A stretch of DNA of 64,000 nt from Escherichia coli (GTDB lineage Bacteria; Pseudomonadota; Gammaproteobacteria; Enterobacterales; Enterobacteriaceae): assembly GCF_003790525.1 (NCBI RefSeq), contig NZ_CP033635.1. One strand, 5' to 3'. Shown piece by piece: positions 8,474 through 14,931 of this stretch; positions within the stretch are counted from its first letter, which is position 1, and each line of letters begins with the position of its first letter. The translations under genes were made by a program, and so were the position numbers. The notes beneath the pieces are model-generated. The model was not told where the DNA came from, searched no databases, and was given only the letters and a program-made list of their open reading frames with translations.

Positions 8474-9211
8474 TCATGTACAGCGCTGTACCGGGCAATG
8501 GGTAATACCGGTCACAACCGGTAACCCCAGAGACAATGCAACTGTTTTTAACGCAATATACTGGCCGGATGTATCACCCCGGGCAGCCTGAAAACACCTT
8601 TCCACCCGGCATTGTCCGTCAGCACTTATCACCCGCCATGTCTGTTGCAATAAATCCACCCGTTGCGAACATTCTTCATCAACCGTGGCACTGACCCGTG
8701 GATGGCAAATGCTCGTCTGGCTGAGCAGCAACAGGCATCGCATTGTTGCTCCTCCATGTTGTTCCCGCAACCAGCGTAATACCACCGGTGGTGCTGGACT
8801 GGCCGTGTGATTACGTTCAGTAATACGCTCGTGCACCTGTCGGTAAAAGGAAGTACAGAATGCATGAATCTGTTGTCCGTTGATGTTTCCTTCTGCCGAA
8901 TGGAGTGTGAAGTGGACGGCCAGCAGACGCGGCCAGTGATCCACCGCCTGCTGAATAAAACGCCGGATTTCCACCGGCTCTGAAAGTACGGTTTCGGTTA
9001 TTTGCACGATTTGATCCCCTTGAATGTTGCTGAACCGGTGTCGGTACGCAGGAAAGCACGCCGAGACCGGTACGATGCCTGTTACAGCGAAGAACGAGGA
9101 ATGACAGACGGGGGCAGCAGGTCGCCAGCACCAGGGACAGGGCTGATTTCCACAATACCAACGCTGGTATTTTGCACATTGCCAGCGTACCGGCATTACA
9201 ACACGTTTCAT
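8474..9211 (-). CDS. YagK/YfjJ-like (inovirus Gp2-like) protein, third tandem copy; possibly degenerate
   Basis: Central region (RLLAVHFTLH...NGQQIHAFCTSFYRQV...) parallels the two upstream paralogs; an internal Met at 9211 would overlap the alpA-like stop (ATGA). The N-terminal region is Cys/Trp-rich and atypical, so a frameshifted pseudogene is possible. Confidence 0.35.
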   Translation of the reverse strand: MKRVVMPVRWQCAKYQRWYCGNQPCPWCWRPAAPVCHSSFFAVTGIVPVSACFPAYRHRFSNIQGDQIVQITETVLSEPVEIRRFIQQAVDHWPRLLAVHFTLHSAEGNINGQQIHAFCTSFYRQVHERITERNHTASPAPPVVLRWLREQHGGATMRCLLLLSQTSICHPRVSATVDEECSQRVDLLQQTWRVISADGQCRVERCFQAARGDTSGQYIALKTVALSLGLPVVTGITHCPVQRCT

Positions 9212-9444
9212 GCTGCTGCCCCTCGTGATGCCTCGATTCGTTGCTGCATCCACTGCTCCACTTCACTTTTGTACCAGCGGCTGCTGCGCCCCAGTTTGAT
9301 GGGTTTAGGGAAATGGCCTTCACTGATCAGCTTGTAAAACCATTTGTCGGTCATACCAGTGAAGCTGGTGATGTAGTTCATGTCGATCAGGGGATCGTCG
9401 GCACGCAGCAATACGCTGTCGTGACCTGTCATTGAGGTCAACAT
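9208..9444 (-). CDS. AlpA-family prophage regulatory protein
   Basis: Contains ...FTGMTDKWFYKLISEGHFPKPIKLGRSSRWYKSEVEQWMQQRIEASRG, the typical AlpA-like helix-turn-helix of integrative islands. The true start is probably the internal Met at 9381. Confidence 0.7.
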   Translation of the reverse strand: MLTSMTGHDSVLLRADDPLIDMNYITSFTGMTDKWFYKLISEGHFPKPIKLGRSSRWYKSEVEQWMQQRIEASRGAAA

Positions 9445-9512
9445 GGTCAGAATGTCCTCTGTGAGATTTATGAATGTTGGGCAAATGCGGGTGAATCTGC
9501 TGAGCTGAGCTT

Positions 9513-10115
9513 TCAGAGCTGGCCTGCTACGGGATACCAGGGATTACCGGCGAGGTAACGGGCTTCCGGATCGCGCACACCACGACGATCGCGGGCGAAA
9601 TCACTGAACGCCCATATCAGCTCTTTGAGTCTCTCTTCGCAGTCCGGTGAACAACTGTCCAGCACCACATCCCGGGTTATCTGTTTCTGGTACGGTGCCG
9701 CTTCACCCGGTGAGGCGAAGCCCAGCACGTTGCTCCAGGCATCCAGAATCAGCCGATCCAGTTCAGGGCCGTCGAAATACTCCTGCCTGACGCACAGCAC
9801 CACGTGGTATTCCGGCTTTTCAGGATGACGTGTCAGGAGCCAGCAGAGGTCACGTCCGGGGGTTGCATTCATCAGGTCACTGACGGTTTCAATAAAGGCC
9901 ATACCGAACCAGGTCCTGCGGCTGCTGAAGGTATTATCGGGTTCCCACGGCAGACGAAGCAGGATACGTCGTATCCGGGAGCCGGACTGCTCACGCAGCG
10001 CACGGTCAAGAACGCCAATAACTTTGTTCTGATACGAGGGCCAGAAGGGTGCCATGCTGTCGTCGAAATAAGAGAAAGTATTCACAGGATATGCTCCGTT
10101 ATGCGCAGCCCACAA
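9513..10115 (-). CDS. YagK/YfjJ-family (inovirus Gp2-like) protein
   Basis: 200-aa ORF paralogous to 10418..11149; the only in-frame start before an upstream stop is a TTG. Confidence 0.5.
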   Translation of the reverse strand: MWAAHNGAYPVNTFSYFDDSMAPFWPSYQNKVIGVLDRALREQSGSRIRRILLRLPWEPDNTFSSRRTWFGMAFIETVSDLMNATPGRDLCWLLTRHPEKPEYHVVLCVRQEYFDGPELDRLILDAWSNVLGFASPGEAAPYQKQITRDVVLDSCSPDCEERLKELIWAFSDFARDRRGVRDPEARYLAGNPWYPVAGQL

Positions 10116-10417
10116 CGCGTCCTGCCCGGGGATGGATGGGCTGACGGGTTACAGGCTGCGGATGAGGTTGATGGAACAGGTGAAGAACCGACGCTGAGCG
10201 GGAATATCAGGGAAGAACATTCAGGGTGAATGAACTCCGTTGACTTCGGTTCACATCATTAAGCAGGGCGGTAAGGTTTTACCGACAGATTGTTTCCGGG
10301 TGCGGAAGCAGATACCGCTGCTGACTTCATGACGGGTTATCAGAATACGGGATAAGGGCATTGGCTGACTCTCTTACCGTGGCATAAGTTCAGGTACCGG
10401 ATACCGTTTTACCGACC

Positions 10418-11149
10418 TCACCTGCCATCCAGCAAACGCCCCGGCCCACGGCTGCAACCATAATTACGCTGACCGGAACCATTATGCTGCTTCGTTTTAT
10501 TTTTCACGAGATAACTGGCTCTGTTCCTGGCTTTCTGCATCGCTGCCACATCACCACGCTTGATCCAGAGAACAGCGGCTTCACCCGGCTTTTTTTCTGA
10601 AGCCTTCCTGGTATCAGAACATCCACCCGACAAAGGCGTGTCATCGGAAGAAGGGCGAGCATCAGACGATGCTGGTTTACGAAAAGGCTTCCACCTGGAA
10701 AAATGGACCAGGCCATCGCCTTGCCAGGGCTCAAGATGCAGAGCGCTGCACCATGCCTCCTGGATCATCGCCGCCAGCGAAGACGGTTCGCTGAAATCCC
10801 CGAGCGAGCACCAGGTATCTTTGTTGAGCAGCAATATCACGTGATAATGTTTCCTGTTTTCTTCCTCTCCGAACTCCCGGCACCAGAAATAACGCAGGCT
10901 GGTTGCATGCACACGCTGACTGGCACGTCGCTTATGCTGCTGGTAAGCCTGGATTTTGGCTTTCAGGGATTCGAAAAAACGAGAAATCACCGCTGAATCC
11001 GGATCGGGATCCATGATGGTGACAGGCATATACTCAGGGAAACGTAAATCCACCCGGATTAACGAGACGGCACGGTGCTGCGACAGGGCACTGTCGAGAA
11101 GGCTGTCAAAACGGGATAACCAGTAAGCATTGTGTATTGGTTGATTCAT
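10418..11149 (-). CDS. YagK/YfjJ-family (inovirus Gp2-like) protein
   Basis: 243-aa ORF with N-terminal ...AVSLIRVDLRFPEYM... motif recalled from CP4-57 YfjJ / CP4-6 YagK. Confidence 0.55.
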   Translation of the reverse strand: MNQPIHNAYWLSRFDSLLDSALSQHRAVSLIRVDLRFPEYMPVTIMDPDPDSAVISRFFESLKAKIQAYQQHKRRASQRVHATSLRYFWCREFGEEENRKHYHVILLLNKDTWCSLGDFSEPSSLAAMIQEAWCSALHLEPWQGDGLVHFSRWKPFRKPASSDARPSSDDTPLSGGCSDTRKASEKKPGEAAVLWIKRGDVAAMQKARNRASYLVKNKTKQHNGSGQRNYGCSRGPGRLLDGR

Positions 11150-11209
11150 GATGAGAGATCTCCGTTGATTTGGATTGACTTCACATCATTAATCACCGCG
11201 GTAAAACTT

Positions 11210-12720
11210 TACGGCATCATGTCATTAAGCAATGCTACAACTCTCTGATTAAGAGTGATTGAAACGGAACAAACCATCCCGGAACGAAAAGATAATCCTG
11301 CACACAGCAGCAAAACACGCAACAACAGCATGAATGGATTTAAAAACGACATGGACGACGAGAAAAGCCTGAAGGGAAAAGGATCCACAGAACATTCGAA
11401 CAAAACACCAGAAACGCAACCAGAACGCTTCCTGGCAATGCAAATCAACAACAACACCAAAACCTACAGCTTAATCACACAACTCAATCACGAATGCGAA
11501 TGACACGTTTAAAACCTGTTTACAGATAACGTCGTAACAAGATCATCCCCATCAGAATCGATTTTCTTATCTTGAGTATGTTACTTTTCAACATACCTAA
11601 ACGATTAACCACCGATAACGTAAATCTCATCTGAATCAAAACACCAAAACCAATCATCACGTTTTCGACAGAAGAAAAACACCACATCATGACAAAAAGA
11701 ATGACCTTACACGGAAAAGAAAAACGTCAGGAATCGTTAATGCATACCTCAATCTGATTGTTATCAAAACATCCAGAAAGTCGTTTAACAGAATCGTCGT
11801 AAGCACATCGAAAAGAACGTCAGATCACCTCAGGAAAGTTCGGGTTGATTTAGCGTAAAGATACTTTTCTCAGCTTAACGTCGAAACACAAACCAAAAAC
11901 CACAAACAACCAAAGCTCAGGAAAGGTTAAACGTCACATCAGTAAAATCGAATAGCAGATTGATTGCTTAAACAGGAAGGATTGTTTTACAGCAGCATTA
12001 AACTGATTTAGTTAACGTAAAATCAGAACTGACAGGTTTACTAACTTGGATGTGTATCAGTTCAAAAATGTGTACAGCAATGCGTAATGAAACACATTTA
12101 AAGGAGATTAATGGGAAAAGTGTGTAAATGCGTAAACATGCACTAATGAATCACTGAAGGAATACATACAAAACGACTTAATGAAAACATAAAAGGACCT
12201 AATGGAAAAGGTGTATATAATACCATATCCGACATTCTCAACATCTTAAGACATCCATGCAGACTGAATGTTGGTTTCAGTTTTTCACGGTAAGCATGAA
12301 TCTTTTCTGTTCAAAAGCAGAGCAGATTTACTCTGGAATTATTTTTCTTACTCCGTATTCTGTACAGCAAAAACTTGTGCTAACTTTACAGCAAACCATC
12401 ATAATCAGCGTCTGTAGTCCCATCGCTTTACCCCATGAAAGTGAATCCATATGATGCGAGAGAGATAAGTCATCGTATCCGGTAAACACTGCTAACCATA
12501 ACATAAGATCATTCAGTCAGTTTTATCTCTGAACTGACGATTATGGCATGCTCATTTATATGGCTCACAGAGGAGTGTTATTATCTGTAAGCTTTAATCA
12601 TCAAATCACATGACCATACCAAACTGGCGCTATATCAGCTCATTTGACACCCCTTCCCTTTAGATTTCTTTATGTGTTTTTTGTCGATAATTAAAATGTA
12701 ATATGAATTTAATATTTTTA
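11210..12720 (+). other. ~1.5 kb non-coding, strand-asymmetric A-rich tract
   Basis: No ORF of 60 aa or more between 11503 and 12257 in any frame; hand counts on sampled 60-nt blocks give roughly 38-45% A versus 12-23% T on the + strand. Confidence 0.6.
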
Positions 12721-12722
12721 CA

Positions 12723-13946
12723 TCATAAACACCATTTAAAACCATTATCCTGAACATCATACAACAATATATTTTTACTAAAGCATGAATTGTATATTTC
12801 TATTAATTCAGGAAAATTATCAGGATTCACCTTTAAATTCACCTGAATGTTACGCCTAATTTCACCCAGCAGTTTTTCATGCGTGAATTTTATTATTTCT
12901 TTATCATAATCTATAAATTCACACATGTTTTTTATGAATTCAAACCCTTTTCCTGTATACAGTTTGATGAATGCCACAAGAGCAAACATTTCAAGATGCA
13001 GCCATAATGCCACGTGAGTTTTTCGCAAAGTATAAAAAATTGAATTCACCTCTTTTTTACTTATTGCTCTTTTGTACTGTGAGTGTGCCAGATTCAGTAG
13101 TGGCAATTCTCTCTCGATAAATGAAAGTGAAAAAGGCGGGTAAATTGATGTCGGAAATATTTTAGGTCTTATGATATTTTCTATTTCCACCATAAATCTA
13201 TCCATAGAAAGAAAATCATTTTCTTTTTTTATTCTGGTATAGAGACCGCCTTTATTTCTTACTGCGACTTTTTTTCGTGCTACCCCCCCCAACACTTCCT
13301 CTAATTGTTTATTTATCTTCGTATCATTAAATACAACCATTCTTCTTATCATCCTGGGAAGGATGATAATATCAGAGCTTGAATCACTTGAACGGTAATT
13401 ATTATTGATCCATGCAACTTCAAGTTGAAGTATCGGAACATTAAATTCTCTGGGGTTAATAACTCTCTGATATTGTTTTTTGTATGCGTTTTTATTAAGA
13501 TATTCTCTGCTGTAGAGAAACTTATAGCAATATAATCTGACAATATCCTTTATGTAAGATTTAAATGAGTCACCTGTAACAGATATATTTTTTCTGCTCA
13601 GTAACTCCTGTGTATTGAGCCATTCCCGTGACCGGAGTACTCCCTTATGAAGACTTTTTCTTACTTGCATTGAACTGCGCAATTGATGTAATATTTTTGC
13701 GTCCTCAACAATTCTCTTTCCCGTTTGATTTCTTGCAGCATCTATTACTCTGTCAAATATCTCCCGGTCCAGACTTTTGTCATATTTACTGATTATACGA
13801 CAAATATTCCTGACCCGACGGTTCTCTTTATTTCGTTTCCATAACTGATAATGATCATCACATAACCTCAGGGCATTTGCCTCATCAAATTCTGAAACAG
13901 GATTGCTGCATTTTTTATTCCGACAGATACCTTTGTTTTTAGCCAT
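12723..13946 (-). CDS. hypothetical protein, 407 aa, very low GC, N-terminal Cys/His cluster
   Basis: Long uninterrupted ORF in a region of roughly 30% GC (hand count on sampled blocks); K/N/I-rich; N-terminus GICRNKKCSNP...LCDDHY suggests a zinc-ribbon-like motif. No family recognised. Confidence 0.6.
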   Translation of the reverse strand: MAKNKGICRNKKCSNPVSEFDEANALRLCDDHYQLWKRNKENRRVRNICRIISKYDKSLDREIFDRVIDAARNQTGKRIVEDAKILHQLRSSMQVRKSLHKGVLRSREWLNTQELLSRKNISVTGDSFKSYIKDIVRLYCYKFLYSREYLNKNAYKKQYQRVINPREFNVPILQLEVAWINNNYRSSDSSSDIIILPRMIRRMVVFNDTKINKQLEEVLGGVARKKVAVRNKGGLYTRIKKENDFLSMDRFMVEIENIIRPKIFPTSIYPPFSLSFIERELPLLNLAHSQYKRAISKKEVNSIFYTLRKTHVALWLHLEMFALVAFIKLYTGKGFEFIKNMCEFIDYDKEIIKFTHEKLLGEIRRNIQVNLKVNPDNFPELIEIYNSCFSKNILLYDVQDNGFKWCL

Positions 13947-14000
13947 ACTCTTCTTCCCGTCAATGGAAAATTTTTCACGTCCATATTACCTGACTGAGAG

Positions 14001-14021
14001 ACCGGATTAATGTGATCCGGT
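14001..14021 (+). promoter_or_regulatory. inverted repeat in the divergent intergenic region
   Basis: ACCGGAT-taatgtg-ATCCGGT perfect 7-bp arms, between the divergent 407-aa ORF and the GTPase gene. Confidence 0.3.
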
Positions 14022-14046
14022 TCAGTGAAATCAACAGGATACCGGT

Positions 14047-14931
14047 ATGTCATTCAGCCATTCTTCCCTTTCCGCACACGTAAAATCACATCTGACCTTT
14101 CTTCCTGAAGAAATACGCCAGAAAATCCTTGAATATCTTCACAGCGTCATTCAGTACGAACCCGTGATTGGCATTATGGGTAAATCCGGTGCCGGAAAAA
14201 GCAGCCTGTGCAATGCCATTTTTCAGTCCCGTGTCTGCGCCACGCATCCACTGAACGGCTGCACCCGTCAGGCTCATCGTCTTACCTTTCAGCCTGGTGA
14301 ACGCAGAATGACGCTCGTCGATCTGCCCGGCACTGGCGAAACACCACAGCATGATCAGGAATACCGGGCACTTTACCGTCAGTTACTGCCCGAACTGGAT
14401 CTGATTATCTGGATCCTGCGTGCTGATGAACGTGCGTATGCTGCCGACATCGCCATGCATCAGTTTTTACTGAATGAAGGTGCCGATCCCTCGCGTTTTC
14501 TGTTTGTTCTCAGCCATGCTGATCGCATCCACCCGGCTGAAGAATGGAACAGCCAGAGCAACACGCCATCCCGTCAGCAGGAACTCTCACTGGCAACAGT
14601 AACAGCCCGGGTGGCAACCCTGTTCCCTTCATCATTTCCGGTACTCCCCATAGCTGCCCCTGCAGGCTGGAATCTTCCGGCATTTGTGTCACTGATGATC
14701 CACGCCCTGCCACCACAGGCAACCAGCACGGTTTATTCGCATATCCGGAATGAAAAGCGCACTGCGCAGGATCAGCAACACGCACAGCAGGCTTTTGGTG
14801 ACGCCATCGGCCAGAGCTTTGACGCGGCCATTGCCCGGTTCAGCTTTCCGGCCTGGATGCTGCAGCTTCTGCGTAAAGCCCGTGATCGCATTATCCGCCT
14901 GCTGGTCACACTGTGGGATCGCCTGTTCTGA
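14047..14931 (+). CDS. YeeP/YfjP/YkfA-family GTPase (50S ribosome-binding GTPase domain)
   Basis: 294-aa ORF with P-loop GIMGKSGAGKSS and overall resemblance to K-12 prophage GTPases YfjP/YeeP. Confidence 0.85.
   Translation: MSFSHSSLSAHVKSHLTFLPEEIRQKILEYLHSVIQYEPVIGIMGKSGAGKSSLCNAIFQSRVCATHPLNGCTRQAHRLTFQPGERRMTLVDLPGTGETPQHDQEYRALYRQLLPELDLIIWILRADERAYAADIAMHQFLLNEGADPSRFLFVLSHADRIHPAEEWNSQSNTPSRQQELSLATVTARVATLFPSSFPVLPIAAPAGWNLPAFVSLMIHALPPQATSTVYSHIRNEKRTAQDQQHAQQAFGDAIGQSFDAAIARFSFPAWMLQLLRKARDRIIRLLVTLWDRLF

Follow-up and report, generated by a model that had tools for sequence, protein, structure and literature searches.

A low-GC gene on an Escherichia coli island belongs to an unnamed Enterobacterales family that probably derives from HNH endonucleases and adjoins a YeeP-like GTPase

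We analyzed a 64,000-nt stretch of Escherichia coli DNA from contig NZ_CP033635.1 (the window, by which we always mean the whole stretch), focusing on one island gene whose 407-aa product we call X. The open reading frame (ORF) occupies positions 12723-13946 on the minus strand, exactly as an earlier note made from the letters alone had placed it. As that note also described, it is divergent from an island GTPase gene; the spacer between the two measures 100 bp. The GTPase, a YeeP-like protein, heads an operon of DUF932, antirestriction, RadC and CbeA-CbtA genes, and on the other side X is followed by about 1.5 kb of non-coding DNA (Table 1). The composition of X sets it apart from its surroundings, another point on which the note was right: GC content is 33.5% in the ORF (40/30/30% by codon position) against 51.8% in the window and 54.1% in the adjacent GTPase gene. 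Measured in 400-bp windows, GC is 0.29-0.39 over 12400-14000 and 0.50-0.60 on either flank, and the low-GC zone, at about 11200-14000, is wider than the ORF and takes in the non-coding DNA downstream of it. X is a basic protein with a pI of 9.7, in which K, L, I, R and N are abundant; its description as K/N/I/Y-rich holds for K (9.8%), I (9.3%) and N (7.9%) and fails for Y (4.4%).

Table 1. Features of the X locus, with the partner gene of the short forms at its own loci
Feature	Position	Strand	Description
Gene X	12723..13946	minus	ATG start, 407 aa; long-form member of an unnamed Enterobacterales family, probably derived from HNH endonucleases
CCCH zinc-type module, residues 1-55, then long helix	13782..13946	minus	C8, C13, C29, H32; ligands invariant in long forms; dN/dS 0.05; pLDDT 72-89
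Helical linker, residues 56-100	13647..13781	minus	pLDDT 50-60; dN/dS 0.82; low column conservation
Predicted beta-beta-alpha core, residues 171-220	13287..13436	minus	homolog of the HNH motif with W179/D192/R201 for His/Asn/Asn
C-terminal domain, residues 233-407	12726..13250	minus	family-specific, mostly alpha-helical; pLDDT mostly 85-95; dN/dS 0.22
Divergent spacer, 100 bp	13947..14046	.	GTPase-proximal ~80 bp (from ~13970) nearly constant between long- and short-form loci
YeeP-like GTPase gene	14047..14931	plus	294 aa; Era/EngA-type G domain and C-terminal extension; constant neighbor of the X family
Cassette-specific 3' flank of X	12363..12722	minus	non-coding; not common to short-form loci
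Shared ~1.2-kb backbone tract	11150..12362	minus	non-coding; upstream of the Gp2-like gene
Gp2-like gene	10418-11149	minus	YagK/YfjJ / 'inovirus Gp2 family'
200-aa hypothetical gene	9513-10115	minus	
AlpA-type helix-turn-helix gene	9208-9444	minus	
YagK/YfjJ-domain gene	near 8474-9253	minus	
Short-form partner gene	L011 6942-7751; L015 6954-7799; L019 6960-7814	minus in those loci	convergent to the short form

The ORF is a real gene held under purifying selection, because a 407-codon open frame has a chance probability of about 5e-14 at this composition, the frame is intact in 967 genomes and the ratio of nonsynonymous to synonymous substitution rates (dN/dS) is 0.29; the note had judged it likely to be real. 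Of 5,426 complete E. coli genomes, 975 (18%) contain DNA of X, at up to four places each, and the 967 full-length frames have 80-95% nucleotide identity, mostly 90-95%. The records listed call the product a 'hypothetical protein', as does RefSeq WP_042039149.1, which equals X at 99.9% identity in one strain. UTI89 carries an 85%-identical member of the same long form, and CFT073 carries one of the short forms described below. About one third of complete E. coli genomes carry the island lineage of X, often in several copies, and well-studied pathogens are included.

We computed dN/dS against the allele at locus L010, which is 85% identical at the protein level. By segment, the zinc-type module at the N-terminus has 0.05, the linker (residues 56-100) 0.82, the middle domain 0.50 and the C-terminal domain 0.22; the neighboring genes have 0.20 (GTPase) and 0.38 (Gp2-like gene). 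Synonymous divergence (dS) of X is 0.26 and falls within the range of its flanking genes, from 0.20 for the Gp2-like gene to 0.38 for the GTPase, which shows that X diverged together with the island. Its low GC content has the same stability. Long forms have 28-33% GC, about 20 points under the neighboring GTPase, at Citrobacter, Klebsiella and metagenomic loci and in a second E. coli lineage; since low GC recurs in every long-form lineage, it is a stable family trait and not a sign of recent arrival. X is therefore not the recently acquired orphan that the note had described, the label 'orphan' failing also on its 18% frequency and on relatives in several Enterobacterales genera. Its constant place beside the GTPase, described below, makes it a permanent component of the island. 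Low GC and an island location do not by themselves imply recent cargo or defense.

When X was searched against 1.84 billion cluster representatives with phmmer, 26 matches were found in total, and a profile search gathered 77 family proteins, all of them 'hypothetical' and devoid of Pfam domains. Relatives that span the full length, at 22-37% identity, occur in Citrobacter, Klebsiella michiganensis and further assemblies, and the structural relatives in the AlphaFold database (AFDB) are confined to Enterobacterales, including Salmonella, Serratia, Enterobacter, Providencia and others. We found no relatives in the phage genome, plasmid and IMG/VR collections searched. The family is thus unnamed, restricted to Enterobacterales and located on chromosomal islands. 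The note had recognized no family, and no Pfam, NCBIfam or PADLOC model matches X: Pfam and the PDB sequences gave no match, no PADLOC family matched at E<=1, and the sole NCBIfam match, YydG, scored 18 bits against a cut-off of 300 and is noise. The family profile found no match among PDB sequences, and a fold search of the X model against the PDB returned none, C-terminal domain included. Searches of the kinds that the note had proposed, in Pfam, the PDB, fold space and the PADLOC models of defense systems, thus connected X to no known family or fold and to no defense model. Nine relatives of X were also compared with PADLOC, eight at E<=1 and the homolog of E. coli strain ET881 at E<=0.1, and gave a single noise-level match to DpdJ (E=0.031, 10 bits). 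Literature searches brought up no paper on the gene, on the family or on its pairing with the GTPase. On present evidence X is not a new defense system; lacking a Pfam, NCBIfam or PHROG model and a solved fold, its family is a candidate to be defined as new.

One database name in the family was considered and rejected. The Klebsiella michiganensis homolog P0016 (CP102103.1, locus L002 8001-9257, 418 aa) is called 'Reverse transcriptase' in UniRef; none of 16 members examined has an RVT match or a YxDD motif, which makes the name an apparent annotation error that could propagate.

Proteins of this family are built from three parts: an N-terminal CCCH module, present in long forms only, a predicted beta-beta-alpha core and a helical C-terminal domain. 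The cluster C8-x4-C13 ... C29-x2-H32 near the N-terminus of X had been read in the note as a zinc-type module, and comparison upholds this. Clusters of this type occur in domains that bind zinc and nucleic acid, and that of X is predicted to form one, with the four Cys/His ligands in two knuckles that characterize a zinc ribbon or treble clef; the ligands are invariant in 16/16 aligned long forms (X and 15 relatives), in the segment where dN/dS is 0.05. In the AlphaFold2 model of the core, secondary-structure prediction places strands at residues 175-179 and 193-197 and a helix at 198-219, with a predicted local distance difference test score (pLDDT) of 82-93 over residues 171-200 and 65-75 over 201-220. 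The C-terminal domain has its own set of invariants, namely Y236, LPL (281-283), R293, E319 and YNSxFS (385-390), and about 20 residues are invariant among relatives at 22-37% identity. The short forms, a large group in E. coli, have about 310-324 aa, begin at about residue 100 of X and lack the zinc module.

We consider it likely, from sequence comparison, that the X family descends from phage-type HNH endonucleases. Three divergent members, P0034, P0036 and an intact ORF of E. coli ET881, carry the HNH signature E-V-S/C-H-x-Y-P-N-x-K-G-G ... N ... I-N-R, which falls on the family-conserved L-x-L-E-V block. Compared with the PHROG collection, P0036 matches phrog_8660 'HNH endonuclease' at E=8.8e-07 and phrog_1271 at E=1.5e-04, and when its motif fragment is searched in isolation, 4/4 matches are HNH or endonuclease VII families (best E=1.1e-03). 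P0036 also matches the HNH region of Cas9d weakly (E=0.019). Three AFDB relatives of X carry the source name 'HNH endonuclease'. For X itself the trace is fainter: its N-terminal 64 residues have a sole PHROG match, to an HNH endonuclease family at E=0.045, and the full-length protein matches a PHROG HNH family at E=0.65. The family consensus and eight more members gave no HNH match in PHROGs. A bridge alignment through homologs of P0036 was not available, as this singleton metagenomic protein has none. Divergent X-family members carry, in a predicted beta-beta-alpha element, the signature of phage HNH endonucleases (PHROG 8660, 1271, 5351), of endonuclease VII (PHROG 1035) and of the HNH domain of Cas9, and as in many HNH enzymes a Cys/His zinc module accompanies the core. 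X differs from these enzymes in having W179/D192/R201 and about 175 extra C-terminal residues without known relative, and its family is absent from phage genomes.

The ET881 member deserves a comment on its annotation. The intact ORF (NZ_CP100890.1, locus L022 9001-10266) encodes 421 aa with a CCCH module and a complete H-N-N signature, of which RefSeq annotates only the 3' part (9490-10266, 258 aa), with a start apparently too far downstream.

The register between X and the members with an H-N-N triad was established with an independent profile, made from GTPase-divergent long forms only. P0034 and P0036 match this profile over the entire length, at 72-74 bits, and the alignment puts W179, D192 and R201 of X on His, Asn and Asn. 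In a table of 24 members, 14/14 degenerate long forms, X included, have W/F/Y/K, D and R at the triad positions. The general-base His at the end of strand 1 is W179 in X and is found as His only in P0034, P0036 and the ET881 homolog; in the short forms the first triad position varies and the third is always Arg. In HNH enzymes His serves as the general base and Asn or His as a metal ligand, and the one-metal His-Me mechanism does not tolerate an Arg in place of that ligand. Because the residues that this mechanism needs are replaced in X, it is probably nuclease-dead and not a canonical nuclease. By sequence, X would most resemble a domesticated, catalytically dead HNH domain protein that fails the defining catalytic features of HNH enzymes.

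The same residues bear on two further explanations. X could be an active non-canonical nuclease or nickase, using for example E176, D192 and R201/R202, maybe at an origin or packaging site in the downstream tract together with the Gp2-like replication proteins. Its HNH ancestry, its location near a conserved non-coding tract and Gp2-like genes, and a site that looks constrained and not decayed, with E176, P197 and I200 invariant and R201 kept in all GTPase-divergent forms, are what this idea can draw on. Given that the general-base His and both Asn residues are replaced, that an Arg stands at the metal-ligand position and that the middle domain has the second highest dN/dS of the four segments, we consider such an activity improbable. 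X could also be the decaying, functionless relic of a homing-type HNH endonuclease, as its lost catalytic residues, AT-rich composition and free-standing position between conserved genes might suggest. Selection effectively refutes this: the frame is intact in 967 genomes, dN/dS is low overall and lowest in the zinc module and C-terminal domain, and about 20 residues stay invariant in a frame that would hardly arise by chance.

We further compared the surroundings of the family. All members with readable surroundings adjoin a YeeP-like GTPase. The degenerate members are divergent from it across a spacer of 94-106 bp, and the H-N-N members stand in tandem with it. Divergent long-form loci were seen in Klebsiella michiganensis, in a Citrobacter sp. 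and on a metagenomic contig, where the X homolog is 35-37% and the GTPase 52-69% identical to those of the window, and the same arrangement recurs in the second E. coli long-form lineage and at four short-form loci. In ET881, the H-N-N ORF is followed after 200 bp by a GTPase gene (L022 10465-11346) whose product is 61% identical to that of the window, and both sit in a minimal integrase island of about 7 kb beside tRNA-Thr. On the P0036 contig, the next gene is the N-terminus of a GTPase-family member (59-72% identity), truncated where the contig stops, and an insertion sequence element interrupts the P0034 contig. The full-length GTPase subtype is found in 1,874 E. coli genomes; the long form is found in 975 and short forms in about 742, the last figure coming from two short-form queries that cross-match the same genome set; these counts show that most, not demonstrably all, islands of the GTPase subtype carry a family member. 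The linkage holds over about 20-90% sequence identity and two gene orientations, turning two anonymous island genes into a testable pair. What is new here is a family, probably HNH-derived, that combines a novel architecture with a constant GTPase partner.

Within E. coli, the two neighbors differ widely in how much they vary: the GTPase is 86-89% identical between loci, and the gene in the slot beside it is 85% identical for the long allele or 23-27% for the short forms. Similarity is lost at two points, about 20-25 bp upstream of the X start codon (near 13970) and near 12360. Across the loci examined, the slot is thus occupied by a single exchangeable gene family and not by random cargo. Short forms always come with a convergent partner gene (269-289 aa), the two genes overlapping by 4 bp at the 3' end of the short form. 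The C-terminus of the partner has a weak likeness to ribbon-helix-helix replication regulators (RepA / RepB-RCR_reg, E ~2e-04). This suggests a complementarity, as far as sequence can tell, in which the long form stands alone with its own zinc module and the short forms, devoid of the module, bring a putative DNA-binding partner. A decayed copy of that partner gene in the 3' flank of X was considered and rejected, as tblastn of the window found nothing.

This picture of the slot differs from that of the earlier note, which proposed X as a candidate anti-phage gene, of the abortive-infection or another type, in a slot for variable cargo and perhaps working with the adjacent non-coding tract. 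This amounts to a stand-alone effector. Its low GC content, island location and unassigned function fit such a role, and in K-12 the CP4-57 region upstream of yfjP does carry the defense genes rnlAB and abpAB, low-GC genes that likewise lie between an AlpA/YfjJ module and a YeeP/YfjP-type GTPase. CP4-57 is a distant paralog lineage, however: YfjP is 36% identical to the window GTPase and CP4-57 has no X-family member, so that the rnlAB analogy is loose. There, rnlAB are co-directional genes unrelated to X; X itself has no co-directional small partner gene and does not form a type II toxin-antitoxin pair of the rnlAB kind. The X slot is not open to free cargo, since presence and absence across loci, a comparison that the note had proposed, showed the X family in it at all loci examined and in the majority of genomes carrying the GTPase subtype. 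Moreover, X co-diverged with its neighbors, its low GC is a family trait, no defense model matches it, and the tract is a shared backbone with no Rfam match and no convincing repeats. A stand-alone effector thus seems very unlikely, and the interpretation given in the note is only partly supported.

In the spacer, a ATATTACC motif at 13982-13990 is kept across E. coli, Citrobacter, Klebsiella and the metagenomic locus (9 loci compared), and an inverted repeat, CCGGAT-N7-ATCCGG, lies at 14002-14020. In Citrobacter the repeat reads CCTGGC...GCCAGG and in the metagenomic locus ATCCG...CGGAT, so that the sequence differs and self-complementarity is kept. It may be a candidate operator or a hairpin in the 5' untranslated region of the GTPase operon; a scan for consensus sigma-70 promoters called no site in the spacer. 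X could be the transcriptional master regulator or 'immunity' determinant of the island, controlling the divergent promoters with no protein link to the GTPase. As with Stl of Staphylococcus aureus pathogenicity islands or cI of lambdoid phages, its gene is divergent from the main operon, highly variable and bounded by a sharp break at the promoter region. Unlike these repressors, X has no helix-turn-helix (HTH), is much larger and appears HNH-derived, and the linkage to the GTPase holds in tandem too. We consider a pure regulator of this kind rather unlikely.

Our preferred reading, held tentatively, is that X is a nuclease-dead nucleic-acid-binding partner or regulator of a GTPase-led module. 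X would derive from an HNH endonuclease that lost catalysis and would have kept the ability to bind nucleic acid, by means of the zinc module and the inactive His-Me-finger core. In the module it would be a fixed partner: a subunit that serves the GTPase in DNA targeting or as an adaptor, or else a regulator of the divergent promoter region, and not a free-standing DNA-cutting cargo effector.

Several observations weigh against this proposal. Some concern the ancestry: HNH models of Pfam, NCBIfam and PHROG have no significant match to X, to the family consensus or to the ET881 H-N-N member, and fold searches returned no HNH or His-Me finger structure for X. When the H-N-N clade was compared by hhalign with the HNH segment of SpCas9, which was verified against the PDB, the match was not significant (E=0.084), although the register was the same, with H/N/N on H840/N854/N863 as counted from the alignment. 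The HNH link is therefore transitive and runs mainly through one significant PHROG match of the singleton P0036. Others concern binding: nucleic-acid binding by X would follow only from domain ancestry and charge, X has no HTH, and the inverted repeat of the spacer is identical in E. coli long- and short-form loci, which speaks against an X-specific operator. As to the partnership, very divergent cassettes (23-27% identical) beside a nearly constant GTPase speak against tight protein-protein co-adaptation, and at least about 8% of genomes with the GTPase subtype are unaccounted for by the long- and short-form counts. Finally, the tandem pairing of H-N-N members was seen at two loci only, and a scan of species-representative genomes seeded with the H-N-N clade found no further tandem loci.

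The obligate pairing with the GTPase and the cassette-like exchange together make a role of X in a conflict system conceivable. X and the GTPase could form a two-component anti-phage or anti-plasmid system, descended from a GTPase-switched HNH nuclease with the NTPase-plus-nuclease logic of McrBC, in which the degenerate X would be sensor or scaffold and any toxicity would stem from the GTPase or from a different gene of the island. In McrBC itself, an AAA+ GTPase (McrB) is paired with a PD-(D/E)xK nuclease (McrC). The likeness lies in two genes on mobile islands, one for an NTP-hydrolyzing protein and one for a nuclease-family protein; the difference is that here a small Era/EngA-type TRAFAC GTPase is joined by an HNH-derived partner whose catalytic residues are lost in the common forms, and we found no sequence relationship. 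Such a system would agree with a GTPase pairing that is obligate across the family, with highly divergent alleles exchanged like cassettes in a conserved frame, with the H-N-N member and GTPase of ET881 as the main cargo of a minimal island, and with type IV restriction, which pairs a GTPase with an endonuclease (PMC3632139). It sits less well with the absence of a PADLOC match for any family member, the loss of the nuclease triad in all common forms, dN/dS values without overall positive selection, and a GTPase at the head of a conserved DUF932/antirestriction/RadC operon that, in our reading, may be more like an establishment or anti-defense module than a defense island. We regard this explanation as unlikely.

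Part of the case for a conflict system rests with the GTPase itself, whose G domain resembles the defense GTPases LeoA and LeoBC of Eleos (E ~1e-07, ~28-29 bits). These are the best PADLOC matches of the window and ET881 GTPases, at E 1e-06 to 1e-07 and ~26-29 bits, mostly over the G domain. The likeness is generic G-domain similarity, and against it stands the size of the GTPase, half that of its matches (294 aa against dynamin-like proteins of 559-601 aa). No LeoA/LeoBC pair is present here, and Eleos has no HNH-like component. As a side observation, the window GTPase additionally matches a C-terminal stretch of LeoBC (residues 183-286).

A broader version of the pairing can be entertained as speculation: the X family and the YeeP-like GTPase may form an undescribed two-protein system, an ancestral GTPase-controlled HNH nuclease rewired around a nuclease-dead, zinc-binding DNA sensor and serving in conflict or in island establishment. 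We give this limited credence. If true, it would be the first functional handle on YeeP/YkfA/YfjP-type GTPases, for which we found no functional study in the literature.

The non-coding DNA downstream of X consists of two parts. The one next to the gene is specific to its cassette: column identity between loci is 0.44-0.64 in 12363-12722 against 0.65-0.98 further on, and where the long form is missing, loci match the tract only up to about 12345-12360. The remaining ~1.2 kb is homologous in long- and short-form loci (65-98% identical columns). Copies, unannotated, are present in 1,876 of the 5,426 E. coli genomes, at up to seven places each and mostly at 60-80% identity. Because this tract accompanies both cassette types, it is shared backbone and not specific to X, contrary to the suggestion that X might act with it. 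We also considered the 1.5-kb tract as a partner non-coding RNA or a repeat array and rejected both, having found no Rfam match, only weak two-copy repeats and no conserved small ORF; no ORF of any kind is conserved across the copies of the backbone tract. A role as an origin, or as a long leader of the Gp2-like replication genes, is conceivable. Only about 320 bp separate AlpA from the family member that it follows at the Klebsiella and Citrobacter loci, so the long tract is specific to E. coli islands.

We made three minor observations on this side of the locus. The backbone tract is T-rich on the transcribed strand (37% T), with its most conserved blocks at 11923-12002 and 11163-11202. At two other loci (L010 5660-6190 and L019 9433-9963) an identical 176-aa ORF of a hypothetical protein, WP_000778605.1, is inserted in the tract, an insertion absent from the window. 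Downstream of the tract, the minus-strand segment 8474-11149 holds related genes of the YagK/YfjJ or 'inovirus Gp2 family' type.

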